From a virus (Duplodnaviria; Caudoviricetes), in IMG/VR virus record IMGVR_UViG_3300032292_001138, positions 1-60,818 of that record: DNA of 60,818 nucleotides; one strand, 5' to 3'. The position numbers and the translations under genes were made by a program. The notes under the pieces are model-generated. The model did no database searches. It had not been told where the DNA came from and saw only the letters and a program-made list of their open reading frames with translations. This document shows, piece by piece, positions 837 to 60,730 of this stretch (its first letter is position 1; every line of letters starts with the position of its first letter).

Positions 837-1196
837 ATGGATACTGCAACCCAAGAGAGGATTTTTCGGTTAGGAGTGCGGCTGTTGAGTCTTACGGGTC
901 AGGCTGAAAGTAATGAAAGGAATCAGTTATTTAATGAAATAGCATTGCTGATGGCTAAACATGCTTATACTTTTTTGGCGATACCTGATCACGCGTGCGA
1001 TGTCCAAAGGGAGTTAACGGTTAAGTGTGGGGTTGCCCCTTGGCATGATAAGTTTAATGAGGGAACGCCCGTGCTTGATGACTTGACACCGGTACTTAAA
1101 GAAATGGTTGTGGGTTGGCGCTACCGTGTGACGGAATTTACTGAGGATGGCGTAATCCACAGCGCATACACCGCGAACCCCGCGACACCCGCTTAG
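837..1196 (+). CDS. hypothetical protein
   Basis: ORF from MDTATQ, divergent from dcd. Confidence 0.55.
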   Translation: MDTATQERIFRLGVRLLSLTGQAESNERNQLFNEIALLMAKHAYTFLAIPDHACDVQRELTVKCGVAPWHDKFNEGTPVLDDLTPVLKEMVVGWRYRVTEFTEDGVIHSAYTANPATPA

Positions 1197-2884
1197 AATA
1201 GCGGCAACTGCGCTGAATCGCGACGTTCGCGGTCTTCGCGGGTGGCGGCGGCGTGGGCAATTCGCGCTGTGGCGATGTCGCAGTATTCGCGGTCTTGCTC
1301 TATGCCAAGGAAGCGGAAACCTTCGAGGATGGCGGCTTTGCCAGTGCTACCGCTGCCAGTGAAAGGATCTAGGATTAGTCCGTTTGGTGGGGTGATTAAG
1401 CGGCATAGGTATTGCATCAGGGCGGTGGGCTTGACGGTGGGATGCATTGACCGTTTGCCATTAAGCCCCTCATCGCGATCTTGTCGGGTGGCTTTAGCGC
1501 AATAGAAAAAACGGGCGGCGGAGCCTTCGCTGGGATCGGCTGTATAGTTACACATTTTGCCTATGCGTGAATGATTCAATGATGTGACGTTTTTAGAGGC
1601 AATACTGTTATTGATGTGAGGCTTCTTTCCGCCACTTTTCTGATACGGGAAAAGGTCTAGAACCTCATCGCTGCCATCATGGATAAAGTTTGCTGGGAAA
1701 CGCCCATTGGTAGGTCTTTCGGCTGTTATTCCCCCTCTGCCATATACATTGCTGTTTTTAGGTAATCCCACGCCACCGCCGCTCGTCCTATCGTCACCAT
1801 CACCTATTCTGCAACCATCAATATTTATCCCACCCGTCCCATACCGCAAAACATTTTGGGCGATTGTGCCGATCAGCGGTTTTCGCGCTACCGTGATCGG
1901 TTCAAAGCTTGGCTTTAGAGCGCTGCCCCAGCCGTCCCATTGTTGCGCTTCAGGGGTGGCGGGTGCGTCAATCGCACGACTTACATTTAAATTTCCAGAA
2001 AACCCGCTTGATTTGCCTTGTGATTGTTCCTTCCAACGTTCACGCCCGTCTGCATCCGCTTTCATTCCCGTGACCTCGCGAATCGCGCCAGCCTCGCGAT
2101 CAATCGCCTTGCTCACGTCATGGGATTTGGGGAATCCGCTGTTACCCGTCGGAAACGCGACACCGTGTCTCACCGCGACAAACGCGCCTGTGGGCACTCG
2201 CAAACACCAGACTTTTCCTGTGTAATGGAATGGCACAACCCGCGCTATCGCTGTCCGGTGACCGCGCCATTCGCGAATCCGCTGTGATCGCGGGTCTGGG
2301 AGTTCGCTTAGTATGGGGATTCGGACCTGTTGCCGCCCTGACAAGGTTTCTGCAAGTGCAAAAGCTTCTTTGCCGTTTTGTTCGACAATAACCCGATGGT
2401 TCTTTGATACAACTTGCACCCCAGCATTACTGATAAGGCGGTAAGCGGTATCGCTGTATTCGTATTCGACAATCTCTAGAATTGGCTGGTAGCTGTATTC
2501 GCCATTAGAGGGGTCGTAGCACAGGACGGTATCGCCCACCTTGGTTTCAGTATGCCGCTTTACGCCCTCACTTGTGACGACTTTGGTTTTCGCGTCTAAG
2601 CAGCCATACACCCACGCGATCACATCGCGAATCTCGAAACCCGCGTCTTCGATGCGTACCGCCATACGGTGCTGGGTTCGCGTCCCCGCGAATGATAAGA
2701 GGTGACCGCCTGGCTTCAGGACTCTTAGGCATTCTTGCCACACCTCAACGGTGGGAACGTCGTAATCCCAGCGTTTGCCCATAAAAGATAGTCCGTAAGG
2801 CGGATCGGTCACTATTGCGTCGACGCTTTCGGGTTGGAGAGTTTTTAGGATTTCGAGGCAGTCGCCATGAATGAGTTCAAACAC
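1193..2884 (-). CDS. DNA N6-adenine/N4-cytosine methyltransferase (beta class) containing a mini-intein
   Basis: TDPPY near N-terminus, HPTVKP, LDPFTGSGSTG near C-terminus; Hint-domain insert. Confidence 0.92.
   Translation of the reverse strand: MFELIHGDCLEILKTLQPESVDAIVTDPPYGLSFMGKRWDYDVPTVEVWQECLRVLKPGGHLLSFAGTRTQHRMAVRIEDAGFEIRDVIAWVYGCLDAKTKVVTSEGVKRHTETKVGDTVLCYDPSNGEYSYQPILEIVEYEYSDTAYRLISNAGVQVVSKNHRVIVEQNGKEAFALAETLSGRQQVRIPILSELPDPRSQRIREWRGHRTAIARVVPFHYTGKVWCLRVPTGAFVAVRHGVAFPTGNSGFPKSHDVSKAIDREAGAIREVTGMKADADGRERWKEQSQGKSSGFSGNLNVSRAIDAPATPEAQQWDGWGSALKPSFEPITVARKPLIGTIAQNVLRYGTGGINIDGCRIGDGDDRTSGGGVGLPKNSNVYGRGGITAERPTNGRFPANFIHDGSDEVLDLFPYQKSGGKKPHINNSIASKNVTSLNHSRIGKMCNYTADPSEGSAARFFYCAKATRQDRDEGLNGKRSMHPTVKPTALMQYLCRLITPPNGLILDPFTGSGSTGKAAILEGFRFLGIEQDREYCDIATARIAHAAATREDRERRDSAQLPLF
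2141..2602 (-). mobile_element. Mini-intein (154 aa, no homing endonuclease)
   Basis: WVYG|CLDAKTKV ... SKNHRV (block B) ... VWCLRV (block F) ... TGN|SGFPKS. Confidence 0.88.
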
Positions 2885-2937
2885 TTGGGGGATGGAGTGA
2901 GATTGTTCGATAACTATTTTAGGTGATTTTAGGCAGT

Positions 2938-2962
2938 AAAAAAGCCCCTGAGAGAGGGGCTT
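2938..2962 (-). terminator. Intrinsic terminator
   Basis: AAAAAGCCCCT-GAGAG-AGGGGCTT hairpin, T tract on minus strand. Confidence 0.6.
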
Positions 2963-3082
2963 CCGTGTGTTATTAGCCGTGCGTTGGTGAGTCGCACCCC
3001 TTAAGAGAGTTAACTAACAAACCAAAAGCTCAGCCCAATTTTGCAGCAAGCCCAGCTTTTGGGCTTTGACCAAGATCCCCGC

Positions 3083-3265
3083 TTAAGTGGCAGCGGTCAA
3101 GTCCAATTGCTTGGACTGTAATTCCGTTACTACATCTAACACGGTCTCAGGATCGACCGATTGCTCAACAACAAACCCGCCAAAATTAGCGGCAAAACTG
3201 CCTTCTGGCAAAGCAAGCGCTTCATCGACAGTGTTCTTTAATGAGTTCCAAATAGCCATAATCAT
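3083..3265 (-). CDS. hypothetical protein
   Basis: ORF coupled to the stop of the upstream gene. Confidence 0.5.
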   Translation of the reverse strand: MIMAIWNSLKNTVDEALALPEGSFAANFGGFVVEQSVDPETVLDVVTELQSKQLDLTAAT

Positions 3266-3501
3266 TAACCTCCAATAATTAACTGTGTGCAGATTGGGCA
3301 AGTATCGGGATTGATCCGCTCTCTTATACCACCCATAATCCCAACGATTTCGTAGGCAGCGCCGCAATGCTTGCAGTCGCTCTCCATCACAGAATCAGTA
3401 CTGCTTGACGCAAACGCTTTGACGACGGAACCATCCGGCAAAGTCCAGTCTGCATAACGAATCGTTTCCCGTTCGCCTATATATCGATGTTTTAATCCCA
3501 T
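3265..3501 (-). CDS. small Zn-ribbon protein
   Basis: CKHC...CPIC. Confidence 0.6.
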   Translation of the reverse strand: MGLKHRYIGERETIRYADWTLPDGSVVKAFASSSTDSVMESDCKHCGAAYEIVGIMGGIRERINPDTCPICTQLIIGG

Positions 3502-3515
3502 TTTTTGCTCCGATA

Positions 3516-5343: not shown

Positions 5344-5891
5344 TGGGAATTAATCGAAAAGTAGTGATAGACGCGGTGGCTAAGGAGTTCCAAATGCCAC
5401 CGACTTTAATTCGCACTTTGTTCGATAAAGGACTTCTGCCCCAAACCAATGATAAATTAGCCATTGCGAAGGCGCTGCTCGCGTATTTCGCGGATAAAGA
5501 ACGCGAACTCACCGCGAAGCGTCGCTTAGTCGAAGAGAGTCCGCAGTATCAAGCGAATTTGCGGCTAACGCGAGAACGCGCCGAACGCCAAGCGCTAGAG
5601 AACGCGGTGATGGCAAAGCAGTTGATTCACGCCGATGCGATGTTGATGGTGTGGAGCAATCTGTTTAGCGTGATGCGACAAAGGCTGTTAGGGCTGCCCG
5701 TCAAAGCGGCAGATCAGATCAAAGAGATGCAATCACGCGATGAGATAGAATTTGCTTTAAAAAGTTATGTAGAAGATGCCCTGAATGAACTTAGCAATAT
5801 CGACCTCAGAGCTACTATCGAAAGAGATCTTTCGGATGAATACGATAGCGACGGCTCAGACAGCGCTGAGGTTTCTGGCTCCACCTCCTAA
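5343..5891 (+). CDS. Terminase small subunit (Nu1-like)
   Basis: RLTRERAERQALEN...LI...RQRLLGLP..A; directly upstream of TerL. Confidence 0.8.
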   Translation: MGINRKVVIDAVAKEFQMPPTLIRTLFDKGLLPQTNDKLAIAKALLAYFADKERELTAKRRLVEESPQYQANLRLTRERAERQALENAVMAKQLIHADAMLMVWSNLFSVMRQRLLGLPVKAADQIKEMQSRDEIEFALKSYVEDALNELSNIDLRATIERDLSDEYDSDGSDSAEVSGSTS

Positions 5892-9978: not shown

Positions 9979-9979
9979 T

Positions 9980-10858
9980 ATGAAGACTCCCATTAGTTAT
10001 TATGGTGGGAAGCAACGTATTGCATCAAAAATCGTGCCGTATATTCTTGCTATCCCCTATACAGTCTATGCCGAACCGTTTGCTGGTGGGCTGTCCGTTT
10101 TGTATGCCAAAGGTAAAATTGATCGAGGGAATAAAGGGCATTACCGAGAAGCGATCAATGACAAAAACAAGCAGTTGATCACGTTTTGGCGGGTAGCAAG
10201 AGAGCATCCCGAAGAGTTAACGCGATGGATTAACCTCACGCCTTACAGCCAAGAGGAATGTCATGAGGCGCAAAAAATTTATGACAACCCTTCAGAGTAC
10301 AATAATCTAAAAGTTGCTTGGGCTACTTATATTCAGTGCAATATGAGTTTTTCCCACCAAATTGGCGCGGGATGGAGTGTAAGCGTCAATGGGAGAGATA
10401 ATAGCGGGAGTAAATGGGTAAATCGCGCAGACAGGCTGCCAGAATGTTTTGAAAGATTGCGTGATGTGCATATTGGCTGTGAAGACGCGATAAGATTCAT
10501 TAAAAGGTGGGATGCGCCGCAGACGCTTTTTTATTGCGATCCACCATATCCAAATAGCCATCAGGGGCATTATGTCGGGTACACCTTAGATGACTGGGCA
10601 AACCTATGTGACGCTCTTGACTCATGCCAGGGCAGTTATATTTTGAGCAACTATCATCAAGATATTCAGCCTAAATCTGCACAGAAATGCGTAGAAATCG
10701 AAGCGGTAATGAGTGCTTCTAATAGCGCAAAACAGACCCAAGATATAAATAAGAAACGAATCGAAAAGCTGTGGATTTGTGACCGTTCTAAAACCATCCG
10801 AAGCGACTTGCAGAAAATTGCTAAAGATGAATGGCGCAAGCAGGGAACACTATTTTAA
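9980..10858 (+). CDS. Dam-like D12-class N6-adenine DNA methyltransferase
   Basis: YYGGKQ, EPFAGG, IND, FYCDPPY, ILSN. Confidence 0.92.
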   Translation: MKTPISYYGGKQRIASKIVPYILAIPYTVYAEPFAGGLSVLYAKGKIDRGNKGHYREAINDKNKQLITFWRVAREHPEELTRWINLTPYSQEECHEAQKIYDNPSEYNNLKVAWATYIQCNMSFSHQIGAGWSVSVNGRDNSGSKWVNRADRLPECFERLRDVHIGCEDAIRFIKRWDAPQTLFYCDPPYPNSHQGHYVGYTLDDWANLCDALDSCQGSYILSNYHQDIQPKSAQKCVEIEAVMSASNSAKQTQDINKKRIEKLWICDRSKTIRSDLQKIAKDEWRKQGTLF

Positions 10859-10928: not shown

Positions 10929-11345
10929 TTATTTAGCTAATTCCTTCTCCAGTAGCTGACAAACAATCATGCCTGTAATCACCCTATTGGGCTTTTGATC
11001 TAACTGCCTAGCGATAGCCACCAGCCGATCCTGAATCTCGCTGGGAATCCACAGGCTGTAATATTCCAAGGCTTCATCGTCCCCAATCGTCTCCAGCCCC
11101 TTAGCCACCTCAGCCGAGACCACCGCGATCACCGCGCCATCGCAGCACCGCGCTACCCACGGCTCGATGAGTTCGCGAGCTACCGCACTACGCGAATATC
11201 GCGATACGCTTCGCGGGTTCGCTTTTTTGCGTGCTTTGATGATGTCGTCAATTCGCGCCATGACGGACTTAGGGAGTCGCCATTTGACGGGGATTCCATC
11301 GATACGGGGGGATTTTTTGATAAATTCGTAGGTTGTTTGAGCCAT
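10929..11345 (-). CDS. tandem ribbon-helix-helix-like regulator
   Basis: WRLPKSVMARID...SRSAVARELI and SLWIPSEIQDRLVAIA...NRVI. Confidence 0.6.
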   Translation of the reverse strand: MAQTTYEFIKKSPRIDGIPVKWRLPKSVMARIDDIIKARKKANPRSVSRYSRSAVARELIEPWVARCCDGAVIAVVSAEVAKGLETIGDDEALEYYSLWIPSEIQDRLVAIARQLDQKPNRVITGMIVCQLLEKELAK

Positions 11346-11411
11346 GATTTGTGATGAGAGTAGATGCAAAAAATGCTAGACCACCTGATGAGGGCAGTCT
11401 AGCGGGTGGGG

Positions 11412-14042: not shown

Positions 14043-14102
14043 AATCGCTTAACTGTCGCGTCACGTCGCGTCAATCGCTTAACTGTCGCGTCACGTCGTG
14101 AC
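14043..14102. repeat. 30-bp tandem repeat containing GTCGCGTCA subrepeats
   Basis: AATCGCTTAACTGTCGCGTCACGTCGCGTC followed by a near-identical copy. Confidence 0.85.
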
Positions 14103-15550: not shown

Positions 15551-16036
15551 TTATTTAACGAGGGGGGAAAAATAAAACACTATATAGCCGGATAGGGCGG
15601 TCAGGATAGCTGCCAAATAAGTGGGATGTTTTGCGCCATCCTGAGTAACGAGCCAAATGGTCAGGGCTAAAGCACCAAACCCAGGCATTGCTAGGGCGTG
15701 ATTTAGCGGAAACCAAAGGGACGGCAAAAATGCCAGCGTGGAGGTAAGCCACAACGTAATCATCAAATAAGCGGCGCGTCTAACCCATTGCATACTGGCA
15801 TTTTCCTGATTTCCTTGAGGTGGTTGAATAGTTGCGGCGGGAACCCGCGACGGCTGCGGAATCGCGGTAGATGGCGATGGCGCGGGTGGTGGCGGTTGGC
15901 GTAGCGGCGGCATTGGCGGGGGTGGCATTGGCTGTGGAGCGTTGCCGACTTGGGCAGCGGATACGTCAACAGTGACGGGACTCACGGGGGACGTGGTTGC
16001 GCCTAGCTGGGTGGAGAGGTTGCGGATGTCTGACAT
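15551..16036 (-). CDS. membrane protein with Pro-rich N-terminus
   Basis: About three hydrophobic segments in the C-terminal half. Confidence 0.7.
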   Translation of the reverse strand: MSDIRNLSTQLGATTSPVSPVTVDVSAAQVGNAPQPMPPPPMPPLRQPPPPAPSPSTAIPQPSRVPAATIQPPQGNQENASMQWVRRAAYLMITLWLTSTLAFLPSLWFPLNHALAMPGFGALALTIWLVTQDGAKHPTYLAAILTALSGYIVFYFSPLVK

Positions 16037-16713: not shown

Positions 16714-16964
16714 ACAGCGTCATTCAGCGCTTTGGTAGATACCGTTTCCGCTGGTTGCTCACCGGTGCATTGCACATATTGCGCAACCAGCGCGTCCCTT
16801 GGCGGTAACGCTTGCTTCGCGGCTGTCGCGGTTCTCGCGCCCGTCGCGGTGGTCGCGGTCTTTAGCGTTCGCCATGCTGAGGGGGTGTTGATCCAGAGCA
16901 ACAGCATTACTACTACAGCAAGGGTGTTTGGGTGTTGACAAATCGTCAAAAACTTTTGCATCAC
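16677..16964 (-). CDS. small membrane or secreted protein
   Basis: N-terminal hydrophobic LAVVVMLLLWI. Confidence 0.55.
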   Translation of the reverse strand: MMQKFLTICQHPNTLAVVVMLLLWINTPSAWRTLKTATTATGARTATAAKQALPPRDALVAQYVQCTGEQPAETVSTKALNDAVWDCKRRQGRSV

Positions 16965-20658: not shown

Positions 20659-20924
20659 ATGAATTTCAAGATTGGCGGCGTACCGCGACAGTCGCTGACC
20701 TCGCGGGTGCGTGTGCGCTAATTTGCGGAATGGTAGCGGATGCCTCGATTGATGGCGTAACCCGCGATTACTGGACAAACGCGGCGGCGCGATTTCGCGA
20801 ACATGGCGGTGAGTCGCGGTTTGGCGCGGGTGCGCTGCAATGGGTGATGAGTTTGACCAGTCACGCCCATAAGCGACTGGCAGAGGATTTGGCAGATCAA
20901 GCGAATTTGCGAGGGATTATCTGA
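20655..20924 (+). CDS. hypothetical protein
   Basis: ATGA-coupled ORF. Confidence 0.6.
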   Translation: MNEFQDWRRTATVADLAGACALICGMVADASIDGVTRDYWTNAAARFREHGGESRFGAGALQWVMSLTSHAHKRLAEDLADQANLRGII

Positions 20925-49700: not shown

Positions 49701-52700
49701 CAAAAGTCAAGCTGATGAAATGTCACGGCTTAACCAAGAGGTGGATCGGTTAAAACTGGAAGTTAAAGCCTCTCAAATTGAATCCACCATTTCTGATGCA
49801 GAGATGGAAAACGTCAAAGAGATTCACAAAGCCGTTAATCCTGAGATAGTTCAATCCGCTTCTAGGGAAGCAAGCATAGGGGCTGAGGCAGCATTATTAA
49901 GGGCGAAAAATTCATCAGATCGGGTTTTCGATGTGATGGACGAGATGGAAAAGGATGCCGCCAAGCCCATGCAAACGCCGTTAGAGAGGGCTGTCGAGAA
50001 AGGCAGAAAAGCGCTTTTAGGGGATTTTGCTTATCCATCCGCACCAGGGGAAGATACTGCGGAACGGATTATCAAGAAAACAGATGCTGGTGATAGAGGT
50101 GGGCTAATTGGAAGATTGGCGGAAGCGACACGGGAAAACCTCGAAAAAGCCGCCCCACATATTGAAAAGTTTAAAAACAGGTTCAGCTCTGCTTTTGAAT
50201 TTGTTAAATCCCAAGCCGCCACTTTCTTGGTTCAGTTCGCCACAGGCATGGGGCTGATCATGGCGGCGCAACAGCTTGGCAACCTCCAAAGAGAATTATT
50301 CAACACATCCGCACGGTTTGAGCAATTCACCCGCGTCATTGTCACCAATAGCAAAGATGCCGCCTCTGGAATCGAAAACCTTAAATTTATTCGTTCTGAA
50401 GTTAGCCGATTAGGGCTTGATTTAGAGAGCGCAACTTCTCAATATGCTTCTATGTTAGGAGCGTTTAAGGGAACTACCCTAGAAGGCGGTGCGGCTAACA
50501 ATATCTTTTCAGCGGTAGCCCAGGCGGGTGCGGTACAAGGCTTAGACCCACAGGCTCAGCAAAGAGCGTTTACCGCTATCACCCAGATGGCAAGTAAGCA
50601 AAAGGTATCCGCAGAAGAATTGAGAGGGCAATTAGGAGAATCTCTCCCAATGGCAATGGGAACTTTTGCCCGTTCCCAGGGGGTAAGCACTGCCCAACTC
50701 GATAAAATGCTCCAAAATGGAGAGTTAGGCTTAGACGCGATCACGAAATTCGCGGCACAGCTAAAAGCGGAAACCAGCGGCGGGGTCGCGGGTGCAGCGG
50801 ATACGGCGGCAGGCGCGATGAATCGCTTTAATAACGCGGTTACAGAAGCGAAGCTTAAATTAAATGAGCCGTTATTCAGCGCTCAAAAAGCTGGTCTAAA
50901 TATTGCGGCGGGTGCGATCAACGCATTCTCTGGATTACTTCCAGTTCTCATTGGGCTTCTGAAAGGCGCGACCTTCGCGGTGGGCGCGTTAGCGGTAATG
51001 GCGGGTAGTCGCTTAGTTTCCGCGCTAGTCGCTGCTGCTGTGCAATTCGGAATTAGCGGCATCGCGGCTAAGGTGTTCAGTGTCGCAATGACCGATATTG
51101 GGAAAGCGGTTTTGCGGGTCACGGCTCAGGTGGCATTAGGGTCGGCGGCTTTTGAGGTTTGGTCAAGTGTTTATAAAAATAATTTTACGAACTTTGCCGA
51201 AGACCTTAAGAAAACCGTTGATTCCGCTGTCAGTGATTTGACACGATTACAGAATAAGGTTTACGAAACCAATCAGGCTAAATTAGTTTCTTCTCAGGGG
51301 TTGCGTGGTGCTTACGATGAATCCAAAGGAGACTGGGTTGGCAAGCTGCTAGAACAGCCTAGGCAAGCTAATGAGTTTTTGCAAAGCAAATTACCTCAGA
51401 ATGAAATTGTGAAGGCGATCGCCACACCGTTTACAGCATTCTTAGGACTGACTGCATTCCCATTAATACCCAAAGGACGCGATCCTTTAGCTGATAAACA
51501 GCGGCAAGATGTCATTGACCAGAGTTACCGAGCTAGGGAATTGGCGGAGGCATTTTTGTTAATGCAAAGCCAATTAAATCAGCCAGAAAAACCTATAAGG
51601 ATTGAACTGCCTAAAGAGCTTGGCTTTTTGCAGCAGAACGCGCCAAAGAAAGGATACAAAGAGGTTCTAGAGTCTGTAGATTATGGCACTTATGTATTAA
51701 AGGAAACCGTCCGCAAGCCTGTTGACAGACCAACATTCAACCCCCAAATTGCTAAAACGATAGAAACGGCTTACGACGCAATTTATAAACAGCTATCTCC
51801 AAATGGAGAACCAGTCGTTTTAAATCAATTGCAATCAAGAAAGCCTAACGTTGCGAATCTCACCAAAGAGATCGACGCGATGAATATCTCTATCGAGTTG
51901 ATGCAGGCAAAACGGAATAACCTGACCTCAGCCGAAAGAGAACAGATTGACGCTTTGGATAAACAGATCGCTGCCACAATGGAAGAGAAGCGAATCAAAG
52001 AAGAAACCATTGCTGATACCGTTACCCTCTATAACAACCTGATCGCCGCCACCAAAAAGGCTAATGCTGACCTACTCCCATATATCAACGAAAACACGGA
52101 AACAGGTAACCGCGCCCGAACTGCTTACCAGCAAAACATCAAAGTTATTGCACAGCTTCAAACCGAATTAGACCGCACTAATAAAACCATCCGTGAAACC
52201 CCTGGACTATTCGCCAAATTGAAAGAGACATTTAACCTGATGTCTCAATCCATGCAACAGCTTAATTATGCCTTAGAGCGTAATATTCAGTTGCAAGAGA
52301 TGCAGCTTAGTCAGGCAGAATTAGAGCGCACTGGCAACGCACCCGCTGGTTCCGCTGGGGGGTATTTGGGAACTGGCAATGAGCCATTGGCTAAGAGTGG
52401 CATGGTTTCCGGTGGTATTCCCTTGGGTAAGTACGATGAAAATCTGGCTAATATTAGGGGTGAAGGATTTGGGGTGCAACGTCCTACCCATATCCATTCT
52501 GGAATTGATTACGCAATCAAGGAAGGCGCTCCATTGTCTATTACCAGAAATGGAGTCGTTACCTTTGTAGGTGAGAGGGGCGGCTATGGCAATGTTGTAG
52601 AAGTTGAAGTAGAAAAAGGTGTAGTGCTTTTCTTTGCCCATTTACGGGATATGTTGGTCAAGAAAGGCGATCAATTAGTGGCGGGTCAAGCCCTGGGAAC

Positions 52701-55665
52701 CGTTGGCAGCACAGGCAACTCAACAGGTCCTCATTTGCACCTTGAACTCTATGTTAACGATCAAAAAGTTGATCCTGATTCCAGGGCGGATCTAAGAGAC
52801 GCTATCAGAGTCGGTGGCACAATAGGAGCCGCCCCAACCGTCAAACCCTCAGCGAGTTTAGCGCAAACGCGGGGCGCGGGTGCATCGCTATTACGCCAAG
52901 TCGGGCCCGTCGCACAACTCACGATCCCGCCAACCGAATTAGCGCAACTCGCGGCGCTAGCGGTTGCCGAAGCGCCTTCGCGTCAAGGTCGCGTTGATGT
53001 CGCACAAACCGTGTTCAATCGCATTAACGCGACTAGGGCGGGTTTGTTCCCATTTGGGCAGAATATTACAGAAACCGCTTTTCAGGATAAGCAGTTTGCC
53101 CCATATTTTGGAATCGATCCTAAGACAATTAGAGACCGTCAAACCGCAATTGATTTTCTGGTCAGTCAGCGCAAAATCCCTCGAAAAGATGCAGAGGCGG
53201 CTTATGAGCAATTCATCAAGGATTTAAATAATCCTGAAATGAGAGAAAACTCTAGGCAGTTTTTGAGGGGCAGAATCTCATTTAAGGGTGTAGAAGAAAT
53301 TGCGAATCGGGTGGCAACAGGAAAGGGACCCGCTGATTACGATACCTACGATCCACAGAGAGCCTCAAACGAAAACTACTTCCATATTGTAAGAGAGGAA
53401 AATCAAACCCCTGAGGCTCTAACCAAAATCTTTCAGATGCCTACGCCTTATGCTGTTAGGGCGCAGGCTCCTAATCGCACCCCAGCGCAATTTACGGCTG
53501 AGCAAACCCGTCAATTGCAGTCACAGCAGGCAGAGCTAGCGCTTCGAGAGGCGGCACTTCGTCAGGCTCAGGGTGAATTGGCGACGGCGTTGGGACGGCT
53601 TAATAGCAATCCCGCTGCATTGCAATTATTGCGTAGTAATACTGTTGCTAATCGAGGGCTTGAACAGTTGCGAAGTGCTGACAGCAAAAAACCTGTTACT
53701 GCCACCGAACTCGCTGGGGTAGATCCTAAGGTCTTGAGAGAGTTCGCTTCTCAGGCGGGTTCTACCAGCCCACAACTTGTTAATGTTTTAAATGCCGCTG
53801 CTGAGGCAAGTCAGGCTCAAGCAACCATTGAACAGTCTACTAAGCGGATTCTTGATTTACAGACAAGTATTAATACTCAGCGGCAAAATATTAATAATGC
53901 CAACCAACAGGCTATTAGGGATGGAGCGGCGCAAGTTGACTCGATCCAAAGAGCAAATGCAGAATATGTGAAACAGCAGGAAATCTTAGCCAAAATCGCA
54001 AAACTCAGAGACCAGCGGCTTGCACAGATTTCTCAATTTGAACAGACCAGAGATACTATTACTCAGCAACAGGCGATCCGGCAATTTGACCTGAGACAGG
54101 CAGCGGCTCCAAGCTTGCAAAATCCCGAATTGACCGCTATCGAGAAAGAACGGAACAGCCAAGTGGCAACCTATCGCACAGAATTGGCAAATCTCTACAG
54201 GGAACTGGTCACAGCACGGCGCGAAATTGCAGCGGAATTGGCAGAATATACTGAAGCCAAGCGCAAAATTGAGGCTGATTTTAATAACAAAGAGGCGGAT
54301 CTAAGGAACAAAATCAGGGCTACAGAAGAGGATCTACGACTTGCTACCAGTGCTAGCGATGCAAATAAAATCGTCACACTAAGAACTCAATTGACCGCAC
54401 AGCAGGCGGAATTAAAAGCGGCACAGGATACCCGCACGGCTGATTTACAGCGGCTTCAGGCAACCAGTCCCATAGCATTTGGGGCAAACGGACAGCCCGT
54501 TAGAATCAATGAAATCCAATCACGAATTAATGAAACAAGGCAGCGACAAGAGGATGAAGCTAAGCTATTAAAATCCCGTGAAACAGCGGTGAGACAGCAA
54601 GAGCGGCAAAGAGAACTTAAGGCAACTCAAGAGGTGACCTCATCGAGGGGCGAACTGATCGAATTGCAAGCGGCTCGATTGGAGAAGCAGGGCGGTATTT
54701 TTAACGCCGCTTCGTTCCGTCGTGAGGCTGGTAGAGCCAAGATTATCGCTGATACCAATGTTCAGTTAGAGCGCTATAACTTCTTACTGTCTGGAACGCC
54801 CGCCGCTATGCAAGCATTGGCACAAGAGGGTAAGACGGTGGCGCAAATCCAAACCCTGAGGGAAATCTTACTCAAGACTCAAGAGATTAAATTAGACAAT
54901 TTGCGGAAAGAGTTTAAGGATTTAGGGGAAACCGTTTTAGAGGTTGCTGATAAATCCTTTGGAACCTTGGTTGATGATATTTTCACGGGAACGAAATCCA
55001 TTGGTGATGCCTTTGCCGATCTCGCTAAATCCATCCTGAAAAGCTGGGCACAGATAGCGGCACAAGGTTTCTTTACAGATCTAAAGCAATTGCTGGGATT
55101 GGGCGGGTCTACTAACAACGGCTTCGGGTCCATGCTAGGCAGTCAGCAGCCGTCATTAATGGGTGCGGGCATCAGTGGATTTGGCTTTAACCTAGGCAGC
55201 CTCTTTGGTCAATCCCCCGTCAGTCCCATGACCGCCCCCGCTATTAATTTTGGTTCTATGTTCCAACCTCAGGCACAGCCATCTATGGTGTCTAGCATTG
55301 CCGATCTAGGGGTTAAGTCAGGGTTTAGCCTTGCTGGTCTATTTGGATTTTCTGAAGGTGGCTACACCGGCGACGGCGCGAAGCACGAAGTCGCGGGTAT
55401 CGTGCATCGCGGTGAGTACGTCGTACCAGCGGATCGCGTGACGCGCCTAGGCTTAGGGCTGCTGTCCGATCTCACCGCGTCTACGCCAATCGCGGTTGCC
55501 CCGCGTGATTACGCGACCGCCGCTGATAGTCGCGAGGGTCGCGCTACGGTGGTTAACGTGAGCAATAGCTACAATATCCCTAATAGCGATACGCTTCGCA
55601 AATCGTCGCAACAAATCGCGTTAGAGCAAGCTGAGGCAACTAGACGGGCTGATCGGTTTAGGTAA
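43771..55665 (+). CDS. Giant tape measure protein (3964 aa) with metallopeptidase, M23 and SleB-like domains
   Basis: QMASKQKVSAEELRGQLGE tape-measure domain; HELNH; HSGID...HLH; C-terminal FSEGGYTGDG...GIVHRGEYV. Confidence 0.92.
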   Translation: MADRQLNVKFSVSGVPEAIGAINQAAETYEAAMKSTETAAQTATAAQEASAAKRMQAAQQAVASLTDIQRSYKSLGLKSDSQIAEEKRKAVQAYEAIKASGVASAEEIGRAYDALERKLERLSRTTAKPRTVAITADNAGVAGSAGQNIVVRTEAAKRGAGECDPCKSLDKLNASLVSAIRHQESTLNATLKSINSENQKLAKDLGSSIDRLPTGIRGGLFENLLKGIGNIAIAPIKLALSGAFFGVGEQLSKDLSIGLSKSIEIAAGRSIGSMDLLGQALGTKISESVTAAIRASIPDPAKVSDKLQEFVGKESAVAASAQRRGAVRQQGEAERRGGTEQLVYEYRQQFAQQEKDNIEKQQLIERAVQRKKDLGASVAAQKEFEANAEVVKTYAEYRKTVTTAQEGLEKGTQLTDATEIATQLKAKKRAEYAPFQERIKAERAKIASGTLTDDEKQASLNEIQSLKEFIGLTAGDTPKQFKAVAGWDRESKKQKEDIAEQIESNRLRIASLKPKVDPDRGTGLYSKAERKKFGEEVLRLEAENEKLKQFQPSQNIFTPEQVAEASKYNYEQLLKQAEQSRPTLEPAAQKRLIPKEQALEVVQGDRRKESAKMSRQISKLQFQRQKLEQEIKNVDLPEVTASEEDKNKYKQIRSEAIAKLDEKIAQVDQKRSTLQELIATSSADLITEDQQIEASFTFYQRKAIAEQRKQTQAEQQDIEESQKFEEIKARSEGFARTKQEIKLLLPKPMEFAESPEKLTENIKATSAALSDASQRRETAKESYQVASSDLQSLERYATLRKKTPDNQEDVQDLQGQIQKQRQSIQGKLLSPQEAVSQLKRDLLVASENVKAKGRKAQASGDTEKAQEFVKQYGAYQQSIRTLSPETITEEQILSASISRAKATKSQAIDQFAVADKDKQKALADAQRLQAQAENEAKYPKVYREMVGQVVELANKERTARGLAPIAPKMSDMPKLTADQARGLGGSYSPAENTIALHPSVIKEITGAQKPEDLLGVISNVVGHELNHWLQVEAGDVGAIARDLQGELSSKHQYIMPTEEQLSSPITPSKSQTIKEGIEASTSPHNFVAAARMKVKEADAYLFGQKFEQYVQRNNEAAQPQPTPARIPLSLPKLPEFELVVAQGAKPAKQAESAKAELAPPAIVTAMENAKAAEGAKAADLAAVEEVAKPVQKLQKDVSASGVLKAREFVQKQQAKFQSLIEQGDRDAAIALGKRELGRLQTVNDEMKRIRDQTADPKTKGVITDYMSDIGKAKAAFEKKVPALEKGGQALEMGRAAVATGRKDIDAVYNIAANTGSIKSLIELRDAYKKIVQDISKDPIASKTKEAKDITATLNKLKEAVNKDIASIAKELNVTLKTAVSDPKEALAIVLEKTKSESKKVAAKILTDSAAATGNVLAQIGDAVVHGVKSLGQSALQGASGALPAVKGGYKALEAVEDVALSVLPGGKQAKAILPAVAGMTAAHHLPGVSQIVDHVISQLTHLGGGLSGIGAEHITAAITAQIQQMLPSFMAGPVIQGIQSHLPQVLTGAGTAAAGGLANLAAGQAIAGTAQAAIKGTAAGAGKLLEGAAQGGVKALPAAQTQALPPSSKPLKSANEPDDLSELGTMHAVIPSPMELLESTYTDKTLGQRLEPIKQAVKNAIEFVQSETPHQAVAKVARLAASAPVDQAFEMVMPAAVGIAGGFPAAFDAAHPAVTLGQQAVSMLDSTGDMATDNSNTKITNMAIEAKKRIVNPALIQFATHLESVDERNRANPEGSTSLHTAIDPEFVKGQLSGAMANVSGAVQNAASAVLPTIDNISEQIGELVQQMLEPILKGHQTLQDMLSQVQAISGTENTDLLAEEYAKAVKAVYFDPLQSGNIENEQAIGNLLPSQELKPIPATEAGIPGSEMYAFLDPLSGMSDELANFITKVTIALEKMGVDPSKIQGLTKSKFAVESEETEQALQGLYSEAGIKPPSAKSQADEMSRLNQEVDRLKLEVKASQIESTISDAEMENVKEIHKAVNPEIVQSASREASIGAEAALLRAKNSSDRVFDVMDEMEKDAAKPMQTPLERAVEKGRKALLGDFAYPSAPGEDTAERIIKKTDAGDRGGLIGRLAEATRENLEKAAPHIEKFKNRFSSAFEFVKSQAATFLVQFATGMGLIMAAQQLGNLQRELFNTSARFEQFTRVIVTNSKDAASGIENLKFIRSEVSRLGLDLESATSQYASMLGAFKGTTLEGGAANNIFSAVAQAGAVQGLDPQAQQRAFTAITQMASKQKVSAEELRGQLGESLPMAMGTFARSQGVSTAQLDKMLQNGELGLDAITKFAAQLKAETSGGVAGAADTAAGAMNRFNNAVTEAKLKLNEPLFSAQKAGLNIAAGAINAFSGLLPVLIGLLKGATFAVGALAVMAGSRLVSALVAAAVQFGISGIAAKVFSVAMTDIGKAVLRVTAQVALGSAAFEVWSSVYKNNFTNFAEDLKKTVDSAVSDLTRLQNKVYETNQAKLVSSQGLRGAYDESKGDWVGKLLEQPRQANEFLQSKLPQNEIVKAIATPFTAFLGLTAFPLIPKGRDPLADKQRQDVIDQSYRARELAEAFLLMQSQLNQPEKPIRIELPKELGFLQQNAPKKGYKEVLESVDYGTYVLKETVRKPVDRPTFNPQIAKTIETAYDAIYKQLSPNGEPVVLNQLQSRKPNVANLTKEIDAMNISIELMQAKRNNLTSAEREQIDALDKQIAATMEEKRIKEETIADTVTLYNNLIAATKKANADLLPYINENTETGNRARTAYQQNIKVIAQLQTELDRTNKTIRETPGLFAKLKETFNLMSQSMQQLNYALERNIQLQEMQLSQAELERTGNAPAGSAGGYLGTGNEPLAKSGMVSGGIPLGKYDENLANIRGEGFGVQRPTHIHSGIDYAIKEGAPLSITRNGVVTFVGERGGYGNVVEVEVEKGVVLFFAHLRDMLVKKGDQLVAGQALGTVGSTGNSTGPHLHLELYVNDQKVDPDSRADLRDAIRVGGTIGAAPTVKPSASLAQTRGAGASLLRQVGPVAQLTIPPTELAQLAALAVAEAPSRQGRVDVAQTVFNRINATRAGLFPFGQNITETAFQDKQFAPYFGIDPKTIRDRQTAIDFLVSQRKIPRKDAEAAYEQFIKDLNNPEMRENSRQFLRGRISFKGVEEIANRVATGKGPADYDTYDPQRASNENYFHIVREENQTPEALTKIFQMPTPYAVRAQAPNRTPAQFTAEQTRQLQSQQAELALREAALRQAQGELATALGRLNSNPAALQLLRSNTVANRGLEQLRSADSKKPVTATELAGVDPKVLREFASQAGSTSPQLVNVLNAAAEASQAQATIEQSTKRILDLQTSINTQRQNINNANQQAIRDGAAQVDSIQRANAEYVKQQEILAKIAKLRDQRLAQISQFEQTRDTITQQQAIRQFDLRQAAAPSLQNPELTAIEKERNSQVATYRTELANLYRELVTARREIAAELAEYTEAKRKIEADFNNKEADLRNKIRATEEDLRLATSASDANKIVTLRTQLTAQQAELKAAQDTRTADLQRLQATSPIAFGANGQPVRINEIQSRINETRQRQEDEAKLLKSRETAVRQQERQRELKATQEVTSSRGELIELQAARLEKQGGIFNAASFRREAGRAKIIADTNVQLERYNFLLSGTPAAMQALAQEGKTVAQIQTLREILLKTQEIKLDNLRKEFKDLGETVLEVADKSFGTLVDDIFTGTKSIGDAFADLAKSILKSWAQIAAQGFFTDLKQLLGLGGSTNNGFGSMLGSQQPSLMGAGISGFGFNLGSLFGQSPVSPMTAPAINFGSMFQPQAQPSMVSSIADLGVKSGFSLAGLFGFSEGGYTGDGAKHEVAGIVHRGEYVVPADRVTRLGLGLLSDLTASTPIAVAPRDYATAADSREGRATVVNVSNSYNIPNSDTLRKSSQQIALEQAEATRRADRFR

Positions 55666-55670
55666 TCAGC

Positions 55671-56959: not shown

Positions 56960-57108
56960 AGGTTTGTGGGTTTTGCTGTTCTAATTTAATAGGCATATTC
57001 CCATGATTTAATTGATTTCGTCAATAACCAAACCAATATATTTTATTGTTGACAAAACCTAAAATAATTACTGTACAATAGCCACGTATATTAAGCTAAG
57101 GTGCAGAC

Positions 57109-57303
57109 ATGGCAAGAGGCGGCATTCGGGAGAACAGCGGTCGGCGCAAAATGGACGCGACCCTCAAAAAGCGTAGCGTACCCGTCGCGCTACGCCCTGA
57201 CACGATAGCGCGATTAGACCGCGCCGCTGCGGAATCGCGGGTTAGCAGATCCGAGATTGTCGAGCGGTTGGTGCAAGAGCACTTAGGAGGGGATAGCCTA
57301 TAA
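57109..57303 (+). CDS. CopG/RHH-family regulator
   Basis: RGG.RENSGR, VALRPDTIARLD...SRSEIVERLV. Confidence 0.78.
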   Translation: MARGGIRENSGRRKMDATLKKRSVPVALRPDTIARLDRAAAESRVSRSEIVERLVQEHLGGDSL

Positions 57304-57880: not shown

Positions 57881-57898
57881 TCTGATTTATTCACCTAT

Positions 57899-58461: not shown

Positions 58462-58466
58462 TCGAC

Positions 58467-58622
58467 ATGGACTCTAACACCAAATACGAAAAATCAGACA
58501 AAGGACGCGCCCGTAAGCGTAAATGGGCGCAAAGCATGACCGCTGAGCAACGCGAGAAACAGCGGATCGCAAAACGCGATTATATGCGACGTAAGCGATC
58601 CGAGGATAAAGAGGGGCGGTGA
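58467..58622 (+). CDS. small highly basic protein (51 aa; not in ORF track)
   Basis: MDSNTKYEKSDKGRARKRKWAQSMTAEQREKQRIAKRDYMRRKRSEDKEGR. Confidence 0.6.
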   Translation: MDSNTKYEKSDKGRARKRKWAQSMTAEQREKQRIAKRDYMRRKRSEDKEGR

Positions 58623-58635
58623 TCGCCTTTGACTT

Positions 58636-59384: not shown

Positions 59385-59461
59385 TGCCTTTGAAAATGTT
59401 GCCGACATTGCCTAATATTTTGCTGACACCTTATTAACATCTCACTCACAGGATCAAACAA

Positions 59462-59701
59462 ATGCCTTATCAGTACGTCAAGATTTCCCGCAATGGTGAA
59501 TCATGGGAAGCGGAAATTGATTTCAGTCAGACCATTGTTGACGATCAAGAGGTCATCTCAGATGATGTGTATGAGTTAGGGGTAGACGAACTCCCCCCAG
59601 GTGTCGAAGATATTCAGGGCAATGTCTTCAACGAACCCCTGCGACTGTTTTGGGTGCAGCAAGGGGATCAAGAGTGGTATTTCGGACTTGACCCCGTTTA
59701 A
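59462..59701 (+). CDS. small acidic protein
   Basis: Asp/Glu-rich ORF with AGGA ribosome-binding site. Confidence 0.6.
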   Translation: MPYQYVKISRNGESWEAEIDFSQTIVDDQEVISDDVYELGVDELPPGVEDIQGNVFNEPLRLFWVQQGDQEWYFGLDPV

Positions 59702-59744
59702 TCAGTTCGGATCGAATAAACTTTGAATTACTTGAAAGGTATAT

Positions 59745-60047
59745 ATGGCTAATTTGCAACTGCATAAAAACTGCTTTATCCCAATGCATCTTGAGGAGCA
59801 GTATCGGAATATTCGCGTTTACTTGCACTTCAACACCTATTCCCATTCATTCGCCACAGCGAAAAAACTGGTGCAAGAGGCTAGAAATGACTTTCCCTCC
59901 CTAGAATTGACGGACAGCGATTTTGAATTTCGCACCTATCGAAACACGGGATATATTGACGGGATCATGGGCTGCGAGTTTTCTCTACCCAAAGATACTC
60001 CGATCCCGCAAGGTTATCACCAAGTAAATAATCTGCCAAGCTATTAA
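59745..60047 (+). CDS. hypothetical protein
   Basis: ORF with AAGGT ribosome-binding site. Confidence 0.6.
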   Translation: MANLQLHKNCFIPMHLEEQYRNIRVYLHFNTYSHSFATAKKLVQEARNDFPSLELTDSDFEFRTYRNTGYIDGIMGCEFSLPKDTPIPQGYHQVNNLPSY

Positions 60048-60081
60048 CCCACCCCATAGCCTTATCTATACAGCATCTATA

Positions 60082-60107
60082 CAGCCTCAATCAGGGGCTG
60101 TTTTTTT
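60082..60107 (+). terminator. Intrinsic terminator
   Basis: CAGCCTC-AATCA-GGGGCTG-TTTTTTT. Confidence 0.7.
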
Positions 60108-60184
60108 GTGCCATCACCCGCCAAATCGCGACACCCGCCACAGCAGCGAAAACCGCGAGGCATCGCGATCCAGCGGCTAACAAC

Positions 60185-60730
60185 TTAATCGCCTTCTACA
60201 GGATCAGCCGCCCGTTTCTTCCAGAGCCGAACACTCGAAACTGATTCGACAGTGTAGCTAACAAATCCCGTCACATCTGACCCATTCTCCACAGCCTTTT
60301 TAACCGCTGCCACATTCACAGTTTTTTTGACCAACTCATCAGGCAACTCGTCAACACTGACCAACAGATTCAGACTCCATTCATCCTTGACCTGATGCTT
60401 AATTGTTCCCAGCGGCGACGCGATTTTTTCTACCCCAGCCTCTAACATTGTTTCCCCTAGGCTTTGCTTTAATTTTTTAGCCTGAGATTCCAGCGCCCGC
60501 GCTTGCGCCGTCGCTTGCGCCGCGTCATCGCGAAACATCTCGGCATCTGCCTCAAGCGCTTCAACGACCATCAACACCCGCAGGGCTTTGTCTTTAATAT
60601 CTGTCTGTACCGCTTGCAATTCGCGCTCCACAGCCTCGCGCACCGCGTCATCCGCGCCCTCAGCGATGAGTCGCGATAAGTTCGCGGCTGTCGCGATAGC
60701 GGCGGTTCGTAAATCTCTGAGAGTAGACAT
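60185..60730 (-). CDS. Siphovirus Gp157-like protein
   Basis: MSTL..L, DIKDK, coiled coil ...LK..L...M...G..KI, LPDEL...V..AAVKKA. Confidence 0.7.
   Translation of the reverse strand: MSTLRDLRTAAIATAANLSRLIAEGADDAVREAVERELQAVQTDIKDKALRVLMVVEALEADAEMFRDDAAQATAQARALESQAKKLKQSLGETMLEAGVEKIASPLGTIKHQVKDEWSLNLLVSVDELPDELVKKTVNVAAVKKAVENGSDVTGFVSYTVESVSSVRLWKKRAADPVEGD

Follow-up and report, generated by a model that had tools for sequence, protein, structure and literature searches.

CGCG islands in the phage genome

The window analyzed here is a complete lake cyanophage genome of 60,818 bp with a GC content of 46.7%. It contains 235 copies of the tetranucleotide CGCG, compared to 264 expected from a Markov model, so that the total is not raised. 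Defining clusters as at least three CGCG with gaps of no more than 70 bp yielded 27 clusters, which together hold 152 of the 235 copies (Table 1). Such islands occur approximately once per 2.2 kb and are present in all modules. The initial annotation had described 27 short CGCG-rich patches on a background in which the word is scarce. These intervals cover 4,041 bp (6.6% of the genome) and contain 157 of the 235 copies, corresponding to 38.9 CGCG per kb inside and 1.37 per kb outside. Clustering of this kind, far above chance, was confirmed, and 24 of the 27 intervals carry at least three CGCG (Poisson P from 1e-9 to 0.013). The other three are weak, with two copies each at 13080-13165 and 43860-43965 and one at 48415-48565. 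The scarce background was borne out as well, since 83 copies lie outside islands compared to 150 ± 9 after shuffling of non-island codons. The GC content of the islands is 61% (47% overall), and their Ala and Arg frequencies are doubled, figures that are partly circular because islands were defined by CGCG. When islands were compared with each other, no similarity longer than 16 bp was found. The loose cluster in the D12-class methyltransferase gene, absent from the earlier list, is a doubtful member, and the intergenic direct repeat at 14057..14090 is probably a separate kind of element in which CGCG is incidental.

Table 1. Clusters of CGCG and genes referred to in the text
Position	Strand	CGCG content	Location and remarks
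1172..1291		7 (spacings 9, 38, 9, 9, 26, 25)	Across 3' end of methyltransferase gene
1193-2884	-	23 in three islands	DNA methyltransferase gene
2077..2292		10	Inside methyltransferase gene 1193-2884, mostly Ala/Arg residues common to homologues
2591..2690		6	Conserved N-terminal part of methyltransferase 1193-2884
5480..5606		7	ORF 5343-5891(+), directly upstream of large terminase gene
10366..10489		3 (loose; spacings 58 and 62 bp)	D12-class methyltransferase gene; doubtful
11124..11257		8	ORF 10929-11369(-)
14057..14090		3	Intergenic direct repeat, operator-like
15846..15884		3	Pro-rich ORF 15551-16036(-)
16791..16857		6, five in strict 9-bp run	ORF 16677-16964(-); run gives Ala at every third residue
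19880..19952		4	ORF 19845-20072(+)
20684..20828		8, three different reading phases	ORF 20604-20924(+)
22306..22532		8	3' part of O-like replication initiator gene
28551..28577		4	5' end of ORF 27786-28655(-)
33106..33198		5 (spacings 53, 10, 10, 16)	5' end of portal gene 31656-33257(-); reading frame shifts at every step
35568..35679		5	Tail protein gene 34020-37790(-)
40034..40101		4	DUF2460 tail gene 39731-40810(-)
44098..44245		8	Tape-measure gene 43771-55665(+)
47199..47304		7	Tape-measure gene
50736..50838		5	Tape-measure gene
50967..51066		5	Tape-measure gene; GCG/CGC triplets carry phase on
52950..53031		4	Tape-measure gene
55377..55543		11	Tape-measure gene, 3' end
57109-57303	+		CopG-family RHH protein, 64 aa, basic N-terminal tail (Pfam RHH_1)
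57156..57239		5	Within CopG-family RHH gene
58506..58578		3	51-aa very basic ORF 58467-58622(+)
60127..60167		3	Intergenic, between convergent genes
60498..60532		3	Mu Gam-like gene 60185-60730(-)
60622..60695		7	Close to 5' end of Mu Gam-like gene 60185-60730(-)

Each array consists of 3 to 11 copies of the 4-bp palindromic core CGCG, spaced approximately 8.7 to 9 bp apart, in the weak context R-T-CGCG-A-Y. The flank class YCGCGR (84 copies) outnumbers RCGCGY (22 copies), and the extended words CGCGCG, GCGCGC, CCGCGG, and ACGCGT occur 1, 0, 2, and 1 times, respectively. Flank information is weak and in part reflects that CCGCGG, ACGCGT, and GCGCGC are avoided. Site orientation classes are mixed both within and between islands. 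Restriction pressure on the genome is extreme, and many GC-rich palindromes are scarce, with a single GGCC (approximately 213 expected) and 39 CCGG (approximately 193 expected). HIP1 is present in one copy and CGATCG in four.

Phase and codon choice

Distances between CGCG pairs peak at 9, 18, 27, and 36 bp, with 26, 14, 11, and 9 pairs, respectively, and 0 to 8 pairs at most other distances, in agreement with the recurrence of 8 to 10 bp claimed for the islands. This raw count is independent of the ORF set, which consists of crude longest-ORF calls. Synonymous shuffling, the check proposed earlier, was run 200 times per scheme, either gene-wide or in 40-codon blocks. The total was retained (230 ± 11, compared to 235 observed), whereas clustering and phase were lost. 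Pairs within 72 bp numbered 304 in the genome compared to 106 ± 16 (gene-wide) or 165 ± 18 (40-codon blocks), and pairs at exactly 9 bp numbered 26 compared to 3.1 ± 1.5 or 7.6 ± 2.2; all shuffles fell short of the genome on these measures. GCG-GCG codon pairs amount to 58, 43, 37, and 32 at codon distances of 3, 6, 9, and 12 and to 21 to 26 elsewhere. Ala regardless of codon is hardly periodic, and pairs of non-GCG Ala codons at distance 3 are depleted (74 compared to approximately 90). GCGC, used as a control, showed no phase, indicating that the signal is specific to CGCG and does not reflect GC content.

Genome-wide, 1,957 positions were counted at which CGCG could be written silently, leaving the protein unchanged. 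This opportunity is realized at 140 of 255 positions inside islands (55%) but at only 75 of 1,702 outside (4.4%). The realized fraction oscillates with distance from a realized site, from 0 to 0.11 at 3 to 6 bp to 0.52 to 0.60 at 9 to 11 bp, then back to 0 to 0.11 at 13 to 14 bp and up to 0.59 to 0.71 at 16 to 17 bp. The oscillation is found in all reading frames and also at distances not divisible by 3; its best period is 8.7 bp, and power at 10.5 bp is absent. Permuting the realized sites among all possible sites within islands gave 62 ± 7 out-of-phase pairs compared to 33 observed (0 of 3,000 permutations as low) and 77 ± 8 in-phase pairs compared to 95 observed (56 of 3,000 as high). Islands behave in an on-or-off manner: among 85 windows (150 bp each) that offer at least 10 possible sites, 25 have none realized and 38 have at least three.

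The arrays are built mostly via the synonymous choices NNC-GCG, CGC-GNN, and NCG-CGN and partly by Ala or Arg at every third residue. As Ala and Arg near the sites are themselves phased, the protein sequence has been bent too. Selection maintains the arrays at about 25 discrete places and purges stray CGCG elsewhere. The codon and frame tests support the earlier idea of a second, DNA-level code laid over genes irrespective of gene, strand, or module. Its description as a genome-wide GCG signal has to be narrowed: the 9-bp GCG/CGC periodicity disappears once islands are masked, so the signal is confined to discrete islands.

Proposed function and known systems

Our preferred reading, which we put forward tentatively, is that the islands are dispersed arrays for a putative protein that binds cooperatively in a register of about 9 bp. 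Each array would probably be a docking place for a small protein that forms dimers and recognizes a specific DNA sequence; its dimers would bind cooperatively in this register and form short nucleoprotein filaments at many points of the chromosome. Because arrays lie in every module, their purpose would be genome-wide, such as transcription regulation or road-blocking, compaction, or DNA shielding. Ribbon-helix-helix (RHH) proteins bind cooperatively in such registers. The functions listed in the initial annotation are supported in part, arrays for a cooperative or wrapping protein fitting best given the RHH precedent for 9 bp.

The only recognizable phage-encoded candidate for an array binder is the CopG-type RHH protein, which matches Pfam RHH_1 with 29.3 bits (cutoff, 20.5); its assignment to the arrays is conjectural. 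Its promoter region (56960-57108) contains no CGCG, so the expected autoregulatory operator would be unlike the arrays. Comparison of the protein with solved structures gave no informative match, and no link between the gene and the arrays was found. A partition role is weakened, as no ParA-like or partition-type partner ATPase was found among the phage proteins.

RHH operators made of tandem short boxes include MetJ metboxes, omega-protein heptads, and ParG tetramer boxes. These boxes of 7 to 8 bp with a 4-bp core are read by the beta-ribbon of successive touching dimers and form promoter operators of 2 to 10 boxes that are not dispersed in coding sequence. In the phage, the register is about 9 bp and the arrays run through coding sequence. 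To our knowledge, arrays of this sort occupy one or a few intergenic loci, whereas here they are found in about 25 places, mostly inside genes. Work on plasmid pCXC100 (type Ib partition) describes an RHH ParB whose dimers bind nine contiguous 9-bp repeats cooperatively, side by side, the footprints recurring with periods of 9.07 and 8.96 bp; the weakly conserved repeats are direct and nonpalindromic and form one locus adjoining the parA-parB operon (PMC3074162). The phage arrays resemble this centromere, as described there, in their contiguous short sites and register of about 9 bp (PMC3074162). They differ from it in their roughly 25 loci, mostly intragenic position, palindromic 4-bp core, and the lack of a detectable ParA-like ATPase.

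Dispersed sites are also known. Mycobacteriophage stoperators number roughly two to three dozen per genome; as detailed for L5, each is one asymmetric site of about 13 bp that follows the direction of transcription, and most lie in intergenic regions. In cluster A phages, they are reported as sites for one phage protein that are scattered across the genome and affect transcription elongation (PMC9283540). The phage studied here likewise carries its sites in about 25 places over the whole genome, but as arrays of a palindromic 4-mer inside genes and without orientation. HIP1 (GCGATCGC) and the alternate highly iterated palindromes of cyanobacteria are dispersed single copies and over-represented overall. 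Like HIP1, CGCG is a GC-rich palindrome that codon choice places within genes in every reading frame; unlike HIP1, its total is not raised and its sites are clustered and phased.

Alternative explanations

It is possible, but unlikely, that a host methyltransferase or one of the three phage enzymes (an N6_N4 methylase, a D12-class methylase, and PF05869 Dam) targets CGCG or a word that includes it, with the clusters acting as methylation-sensed switches or sequestration sites. Precedents are the GATC clusters bound by SeqA at oriC and the hexamer repeats of the P1 pac site, which are spaced approximately by the helical repeat and confined to one or a few loci. The phage islands share with them the local clustering and functional spacing of a short palindrome resembling a type II methyltransferase target, and the restriction pressure on the genome and the 23 CGCG within a methylase gene are in line with this. 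However, they occupy about 25 loci at 8.7 to 9 bp, a period unlike the helical repeat that would be expected if methylated sites were bound on the same face, and methylation by itself accounts for neither the strictness of the phase nor the depletion of stray CGCG. Methylation would still require a reader protein and therefore overlaps with the cooperative-binding explanation.

Somewhat more doubtful are recognition or loading sites for a DNA-processing machine, such as a Chi-type recombination hotspot, translocase, primase, or topoisomerase. The presence of islands in all modules, one per approximately 2.2 kb, suits a machine that engages anywhere on the chromosome, and the phage encodes an FtsK/HerA-like ATPase (14357-15541), DnaB, an ATP-dependent ligase, and a Mu Gam-like protein. 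However, Chi, KOPS, and SRS are signals that each consist of one polar word, and the palindromic core and mixed orientation of the sites do not support a polar translocase signal. Machines of this kind are not known to depend on phased arrays with a 9-bp step. The origin of replication carries 22-bp iterons of its own (21647-21771), which are separate from the island at 22306..22532, and the tests argue against the islands being such iterons.

A nonfunctional by-product is improbable and has been largely refuted. It could derive from Ala/Arg- or GC-rich protein segments, codon rewriting through restriction-site avoidance, relics of 9-bp tandem duplication, or mosaic patches from a GC-rich relative. 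Island composition (with the circularity noted above), the narrowing of codon choice by forbidden GC-rich palindromes (GGCC and CCGG), and a weak 9-bp tandem-repeat score in three islands speak for it. Against it, the signal is lost in shuffles that leave the protein sequence and local codon content intact, windows equally rich in Ala and Arg are entirely on or entirely off, the realized fraction oscillates in all frames, and the permutation result stands beside these. The absence of longer similarity between islands also argues against it, as does the 9-bp excess, which is 28.6 times expectation here but 1.6 to 2.0 times in GC-rich prophage loci. Most methyltransferase sites fall on residues common to 13 homologues and hence were not made by duplication.

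Sequence-based tests argue against non-B DNA or single-strand structure (Z-DNA, cruciforms, or CGCG-N5-CGCG hairpins in single-stranded DNA or mRNA), the least probable explanation: CGCG is self-complementary, a minimal Z-prone word, and a pair of copies at a distance of 9 nt would allow a hairpin with a 5-nt loop on a 4-bp stem, but longer alternating runs are avoided and the predominant flanks break purine-pyrimidine alternation, which disfavors the Z-DNA-prone patches suggested before. Hairpins are disfavored as well: stem-extending complementarity was found 8 times among 55 adjacent site pairs compared to 17.6 ± 3.1 expected. When six islands were folded as single strands, their stability did not exceed that of dinucleotide shuffles (z from +0.48 to -1.32), and the islands matched no Rfam family.

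Occurrence in other genomes

The feature belongs to the phage. A comparison with 103 terminase-related phage loci of at least 8 kb each, among which this genome is the outlier, did not reveal it elsewhere, nor did scans of IMG/VR, which were imperfect. A triple-phased pattern occurs 7 times in this genome and is absent from 335 of 401 cyanobacterial genomes. High counts in the other cyanobacterial genomes were obtained only where the GCGC control was similarly frequent. A few genomes with low counts exceed the control, most clearly G198 (16 compared to 2), for which the matches listed are GC-rich.

Clustering and phasing of CGCG sites

The tetranucleotide CGCG occurs 235 times in the genome. 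The 27 intervals that the initial annotation had marked as CGCG islands make up 6.6% of the genome and hold 157 of these copies, corresponding to 38.9 per kb compared with 1.37 per kb outside, and 24 of the 27 contain at least three sites. Independent clustering yielded 27 clusters covering 152 of the 235 copies. They were present in all modules, and 24 of them were located inside ORF calls. The recurrence of 8 to 10 bp previously described for the islands was recovered in the distances between CGCG sites, which peaked at 9 bp (26 pairs), 18 bp (14 pairs), 27 bp (11 pairs), and 36 bp (9 pairs). The 26 pairs at 9 bp were distributed over 13 islands. The triple pattern CGCG-N5-CGCG-N5-CGCG was found seven times in the window, compared with 0.00 in 100 dinucleotide-preserving shuffles, and its GCGC version not once. 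With a period of 8.7 to 9 bp and runs of two to five sites, the arrays represent tandem short sites at a fixed register of 7 to 11 bp.

The islands are discrete. Among 85 windows of 150 bp with at least 10 possible sites, i.e., places where CGCG can be encoded silently, 25 had no realised site (one where CGCG is actually present) and 38 had at least three. The view that GCG and CGC form islands genome-wide held in part: a 9-bp oscillation was seen genome-wide, but it was gone once the islands were masked. The background was indeed poor in CGCG, as had been suspected, with 83 copies outside islands compared with 150 ± 9 in synonymous shuffles of non-island codons. Clustering together with this depletion indicates that the phage removes stray copies and keeps arrays.

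Codon choice and protein sequence

Neither protein sequence nor codon usage accounts for the clustering and phase of CGCG, in line with the earlier proposal of a signal overlaid on the coding sequence. When synonymous codons were permuted within genes (200 shuffles per scheme), the CGCG total remained unchanged, at 230 ± 11 versus 235 observed. Close pairs, 304 in the genome, were reduced to 106 ± 16, and the 26 pairs at 9 bp were reduced to 3.1 ± 1.5. In a second scheme, which permuted codons in 40-codon blocks and kept local codon content, close pairs numbered 165 ± 18 and those spaced 9 bp apart 7.6 ± 2.2. Pairs of GCG codons numbered 58, 43, 37, and 32 at codon distances of 3, 6, 9, and 12, compared with 21 to 26 at other distances. 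Alanine residues as such were hardly periodic (213 versus about 195), and pairs of alanines encoded by codons other than GCG were depleted at codon distance 3.

The gene set, 78 ORF calls obtained by a crude longest-ORF method, contained 1,957 possible sites, of which 140 of 255 were realised inside islands and 75 of 1,702 outside. The realised fraction varied with the distance from a realised site, from 0 to 0.11 at 3 to 6 bp to 0.52 to 0.60 at 9 to 11 bp, and continued to oscillate, with 0 to 0.11 at 13 to 14 bp and 0.59 to 0.71 at 16 to 17 bp. The oscillation extended to distances other than multiples of three; its best-fit period was 8.7 bp, and 10.5 bp carried no power. Compared with permutations within islands, out-of-phase pairs were scarce (33 versus 62 ± 7; none of 3,000 permutations was as low) and in-phase pairs were more frequent (95 versus 77 ± 8; 56 of 3,000 were as high). 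Around realised sites, possible sites themselves were more numerous at distances of 9, 18, and 27 bp (84, 65, and 47, respectively) than at other multiples of three (19 to 34), which shows that alanine and arginine residues are also placed in phase. A cause at the codon level, that is, in translation, is excluded by the presence of the effect across frames and in intergenic DNA.

The methyltransferase gene that carries islands 2 and 3 was aligned with 13 homologues of 51 to 65% identity. Judged by eye, most of the 16 sites in these two islands fall on alanine or arginine residues shared by the family, and a few on residues peculiar to the enzyme of this phage.

Motif context and restriction-site avoidance

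The mean context of a site was R-T-CGCG-A-Y followed by an AT-leaning base, and GC-rich and AT-rich stretches alternated each 9 bp around the sites for about four periods. Flank information was weak, with T before or A after the core in 151 of the 235 sites. The core is palindromic, and the orientation classes of the sites were mixed. TCGCGA was present in 29 copies, and the other palindromic hexamers were nearly absent (CCGCGG, two copies; ACGCGT, one; GCGCGC, none), which fits the extreme restriction-site avoidance of this phage. In the whole window, GGCC occurs once compared with about 213 expected, and CCGG occurs 39 times compared with about 193. GGCGCC, GGATCC, TTCGAA, and CAGCTG are absent, as are the nonpalindromic words GACGCC and GAGCCC; GAATTC, CTGCAG, and GATATC occur once each and CGATCG four times. 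Avoidance of restriction-type palindromes implies that the phage meets many restriction systems in its host or hosts.

Candidate function of the arrays

The arrays exist and carry a signature of selection. The cis-element system that they constitute is real, has overwhelming statistical support, and has no earlier description within the reach of these searches. In the best-fitting reading, they would be sites for a dimeric protein, which would bind each array cooperatively, side by side. Five properties fit such an assignment: the sequence-specific 4-bp palindromic core, the fixed register of about 9 bp over two to five sites, the confinement to discrete patches of 30 to 230 bp, the purging of stray copies, and the lack of selection for single-strand structure. 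As to purpose, regulation, road-blocking, compaction, or shielding would be our guess.

The register has a direct precedent in ParB of plasmid pCXC100. The ribbon-helix-helix (RHH) domain of this protein binds a row of nine adjoining 9-bp repeats that are weakly conserved, and its footprints recur with periods of 9.07 and 8.96 bp (PMC3074162). A fixed short register is common to the phage arrays and the RHH centromere arrays of type Ib and type II partition systems. However, the latter occupy one or a few intergenic loci beside the par operon, whereas the phage has 27 clusters, mostly in ORFs and in all modules. Pfam and PHROG scans of the phage ORFs returned no ParA family match that would represent a ParA/ParM/TubZ-type NTPase partner, and Walker A motifs were restricted to an FtsK/HerA-like ATPase, DnaB, and a chance match in the tape-measure protein. 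The lack of a ParA-like ATPase in these scans weakens a partition reading. The phage RHH gene is the sole recognisable candidate binder. CGCG is absent from its promoter region, and comparison of the RHH protein with solved structures gave no informative match.

For genome-wide dispersal, the precedent is provided by the stoperators of mycobacteriophages, many sites for one phage protein that are dispersed over the genome (PMC9283540). The 27 clusters over 60.8 kb are likewise many and dispersed, and would likewise serve a single binding protein. Stoperators, however, are single asymmetric sites oriented with transcription, whereas the phage sites form arrays with a palindromic core and mixed orientation. 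HIP1-like palindromes are over-represented as dispersed single copies, in contrast to phage CGCG, the total of which equals the shuffle expectation and which is clustered and depleted outside islands. Clusters of methylation sites of the SeqA/GATC and P1 pac type go with a methyltransferase that acts on the clustered word; the phage has three methyltransferase genes as candidates for such a role.

Phage regulators and partition proteins are usually seen as acting at a few intergenic operators. If the arrays are binding sites, having some 25 of them within genes would suggest that phage DNA is organised, silenced, or protected on the scale of the genome, an aspect of phage biology that has hardly been studied in cyanophages. 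They would also be a clear example from nature of a code in the DNA taking precedence, throughout a viral genome, over the choice of codons and in part over the proteins encoded. Arrays of cooperative binding sites are already known as a kind, and there is a fair chance that the biology here is new. A further-reaching and rather unlikely possibility is a chromatin-like system of the phage's own, in which about 25 intragenic arrays would serve as nucleation points for a small phage protein, and this protein would coat the entire chromosome, compact or shield it, or switch it off when required. The demand for arrays would then be strong enough to determine which codons are used, and also some of the residues, in enzymes and structural proteins. 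For a virus exposed to very heavy restriction, this would be a true second genetic code.

The sharpness of the signal permits direct testing, and the realised fraction of possible sites, plotted against distance, offers a simple statistic to find similar systems elsewhere. The arrays are a warning against treating synonymous positions in phage genes as neutral, which bears on recoding, on dN/dS work, and on host prediction from codon usage.

Other explanations for the arrays

Iterons of a replication origin do not account for the arrays, since the O-like initiator gene has its own 22-bp repeat and CGCG arrays are found in about 25 other places. Each unit of the 22-bp repeat is a GGATC...GATCC inverted repeat, and by analogy with lambda this element very probably serves as the origin of replication. 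Most islands are not relics of tandem duplication: Tandem Repeats Finder reported 3 of 27, at 73 to 90% matches, and the spacers differ. True 9-bp tandem repeats from IMG/VR look unlike the islands. Hairpins or cruciforms are contradicted by stem-lengthening complementarity in 55 adjacent site pairs, which was 8 compared with 17.6 ± 3.1 expected; the 6 of 27 islands that were folded did no better than shuffles, and no known RNA family in Rfam matched the islands. The Z-DNA-prone patches considered in the initial annotation were not borne out. Alternating purine-pyrimidine runs of at least 6 to 8 bp, as in Z-DNA-forming tracts, are avoided (CGCGCG and ACGCGT once each, GCGCGC not at all), and a pyrimidine before and a purine after the core are preferred. 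A repeated mobile element is ruled out by similarity between islands of at most 16 bp.

Distribution in other genomes

Of the 401 cyanobacterial genomes sampled, 335 lacked the triple-phased CGCG pattern, and high counts occurred only where the GCGC control was comparably frequent. A few low-count genomes exceeded this control, most clearly G198 (16 versus 2), the listed matches of which were GC-rich. A host-genome property was not visible among these 401 genomes, a sample that may not include the true host.

Terminase-related loci were fetched (160, all of at most 42% identity), and the 103 of at least 8 kb were scored, leaving out 57 shorter ones. Their median 9-bp excess was 0.7-fold, compared with 28.6-fold in the window, and their median clustering index was 1.03, compared with 5.8. 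At this distance, CGCG arrays are not a property of related phages. The nearest terminase in a large protein collection was 72% identical, all others at most 47%, and members of the protein clusters were nearly identical proteins. Contigs of about 90 to 97% identity were present in three lake-water metagenome runs; among 40 differences from the window that were listed (905 more exist), none was inside an island. DNA of close relatives was found neither in the phage collection nor in IMG/VR, and a metagenome scan gave a sole match at 32%; near relatives seem to be missing from the contig collections searched.

Look-alikes were sought in IMG/VR with two patterns. Four YCGCGR sites at 9 bp gave 111 matches in high-GC DNA or exact tandem repeats, none related to the window; this pattern was too strict, with no match in the window itself, so that the scan says little. 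The second pattern, modelled visually on the arrays at 1219 and 16818, matched at least 119 stretches, and 102 loci of at least 4 kb from the matches listed were scored. Two of the higher-ranked loci, viewed by eye, were a tandem repeat and a giant-virus contig and not look-alikes. Both scans are blind to a phage with many short arrays, and the absence of look-alikes is therefore weak evidence. The titles and abstract openings found in literature searches contained no description of such phased arrays in a phage.

Gene content and other sequence features

The 60,818-bp window is the whole genome record of a tailed cyanophage. About 38 of roughly 79 ORFs scanned had no Pfam or PHROG match. The NblA homologue marks the phage as a cyanophage; auxiliary genes of this kind are typical in freshwater cyanophages. 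Six CGCG clusters are located in the tape-measure gene. In a protein-cluster look-up, the proteins of the window were also assigned to a contig of 60,918 bp; the extra 100 bp would be consistent with trimming of overlapping ends from a circular assembly. The intergenic direct repeat, which was counted among the CGCG clusters, has an operator-like look and is probably a different element from the islands.

Genes and repeats of the phage genome
Feature	Position	Strand	Remarks
tRNA	88-153	-	Rfam 53 bits, cut-off 29; none reported by ARAGORN
N6_N4 methyltransferase	1193-2884	-	carries islands 2 and 3
D12-class methyltransferase	9980-10858
Direct repeat, leftward early region	11851-12071		exact, 110 bp, 2.0 copies, 100% identity
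Intergenic direct repeat	14045-14098		about 26 bp, twice, with TCACGTCGTGA-like symmetry
NblA (phycobilisome degradation) homologue	20066-20263	+	27.7 bits, cut-off 25
Tandem repeat within O-like gene	21647-21771		22 bp, 5.7 copies
Apparent capsid-protease fusion	29423-31771	-	782 aa; matches major head protein and head maturation protease families
Tape-measure protein	43771-55665	+	very long, 3,964 aa; internal M23 peptidase domain
Large terminase			lambda-type
Portal and tail genes
O-like replication initiator; DnaB
DNA methyltransferases			three in all, including the N6_N4 and D12-class enzymes
ATP-dependent ligase
CopG-type RHH protein	57109-57303	+
Basic protein	58467-58622	+	51 aa
Cro/C1-type protein	17407-17631
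Mu Gam-like protein

The N6_N4 methyltransferase contains an insert of about 155 aa (residues about 95 to 248), bounded by Cys95 and Asn248; Ser249 comes next, and His163 lies within the insert. An alignment of 14 sequences shows no variation at any of these four positions. By these features the insert looks like a mini-intein or Hint domain, and a Pfam scan of the protein returned no Hint family. In a relative's contig (run X2), position 9979 is joined to 10868, skipping 888 bp. The skipped segment is exactly the D12-class methyltransferase gene, which identifies this gene as a cassette present in some strains only.
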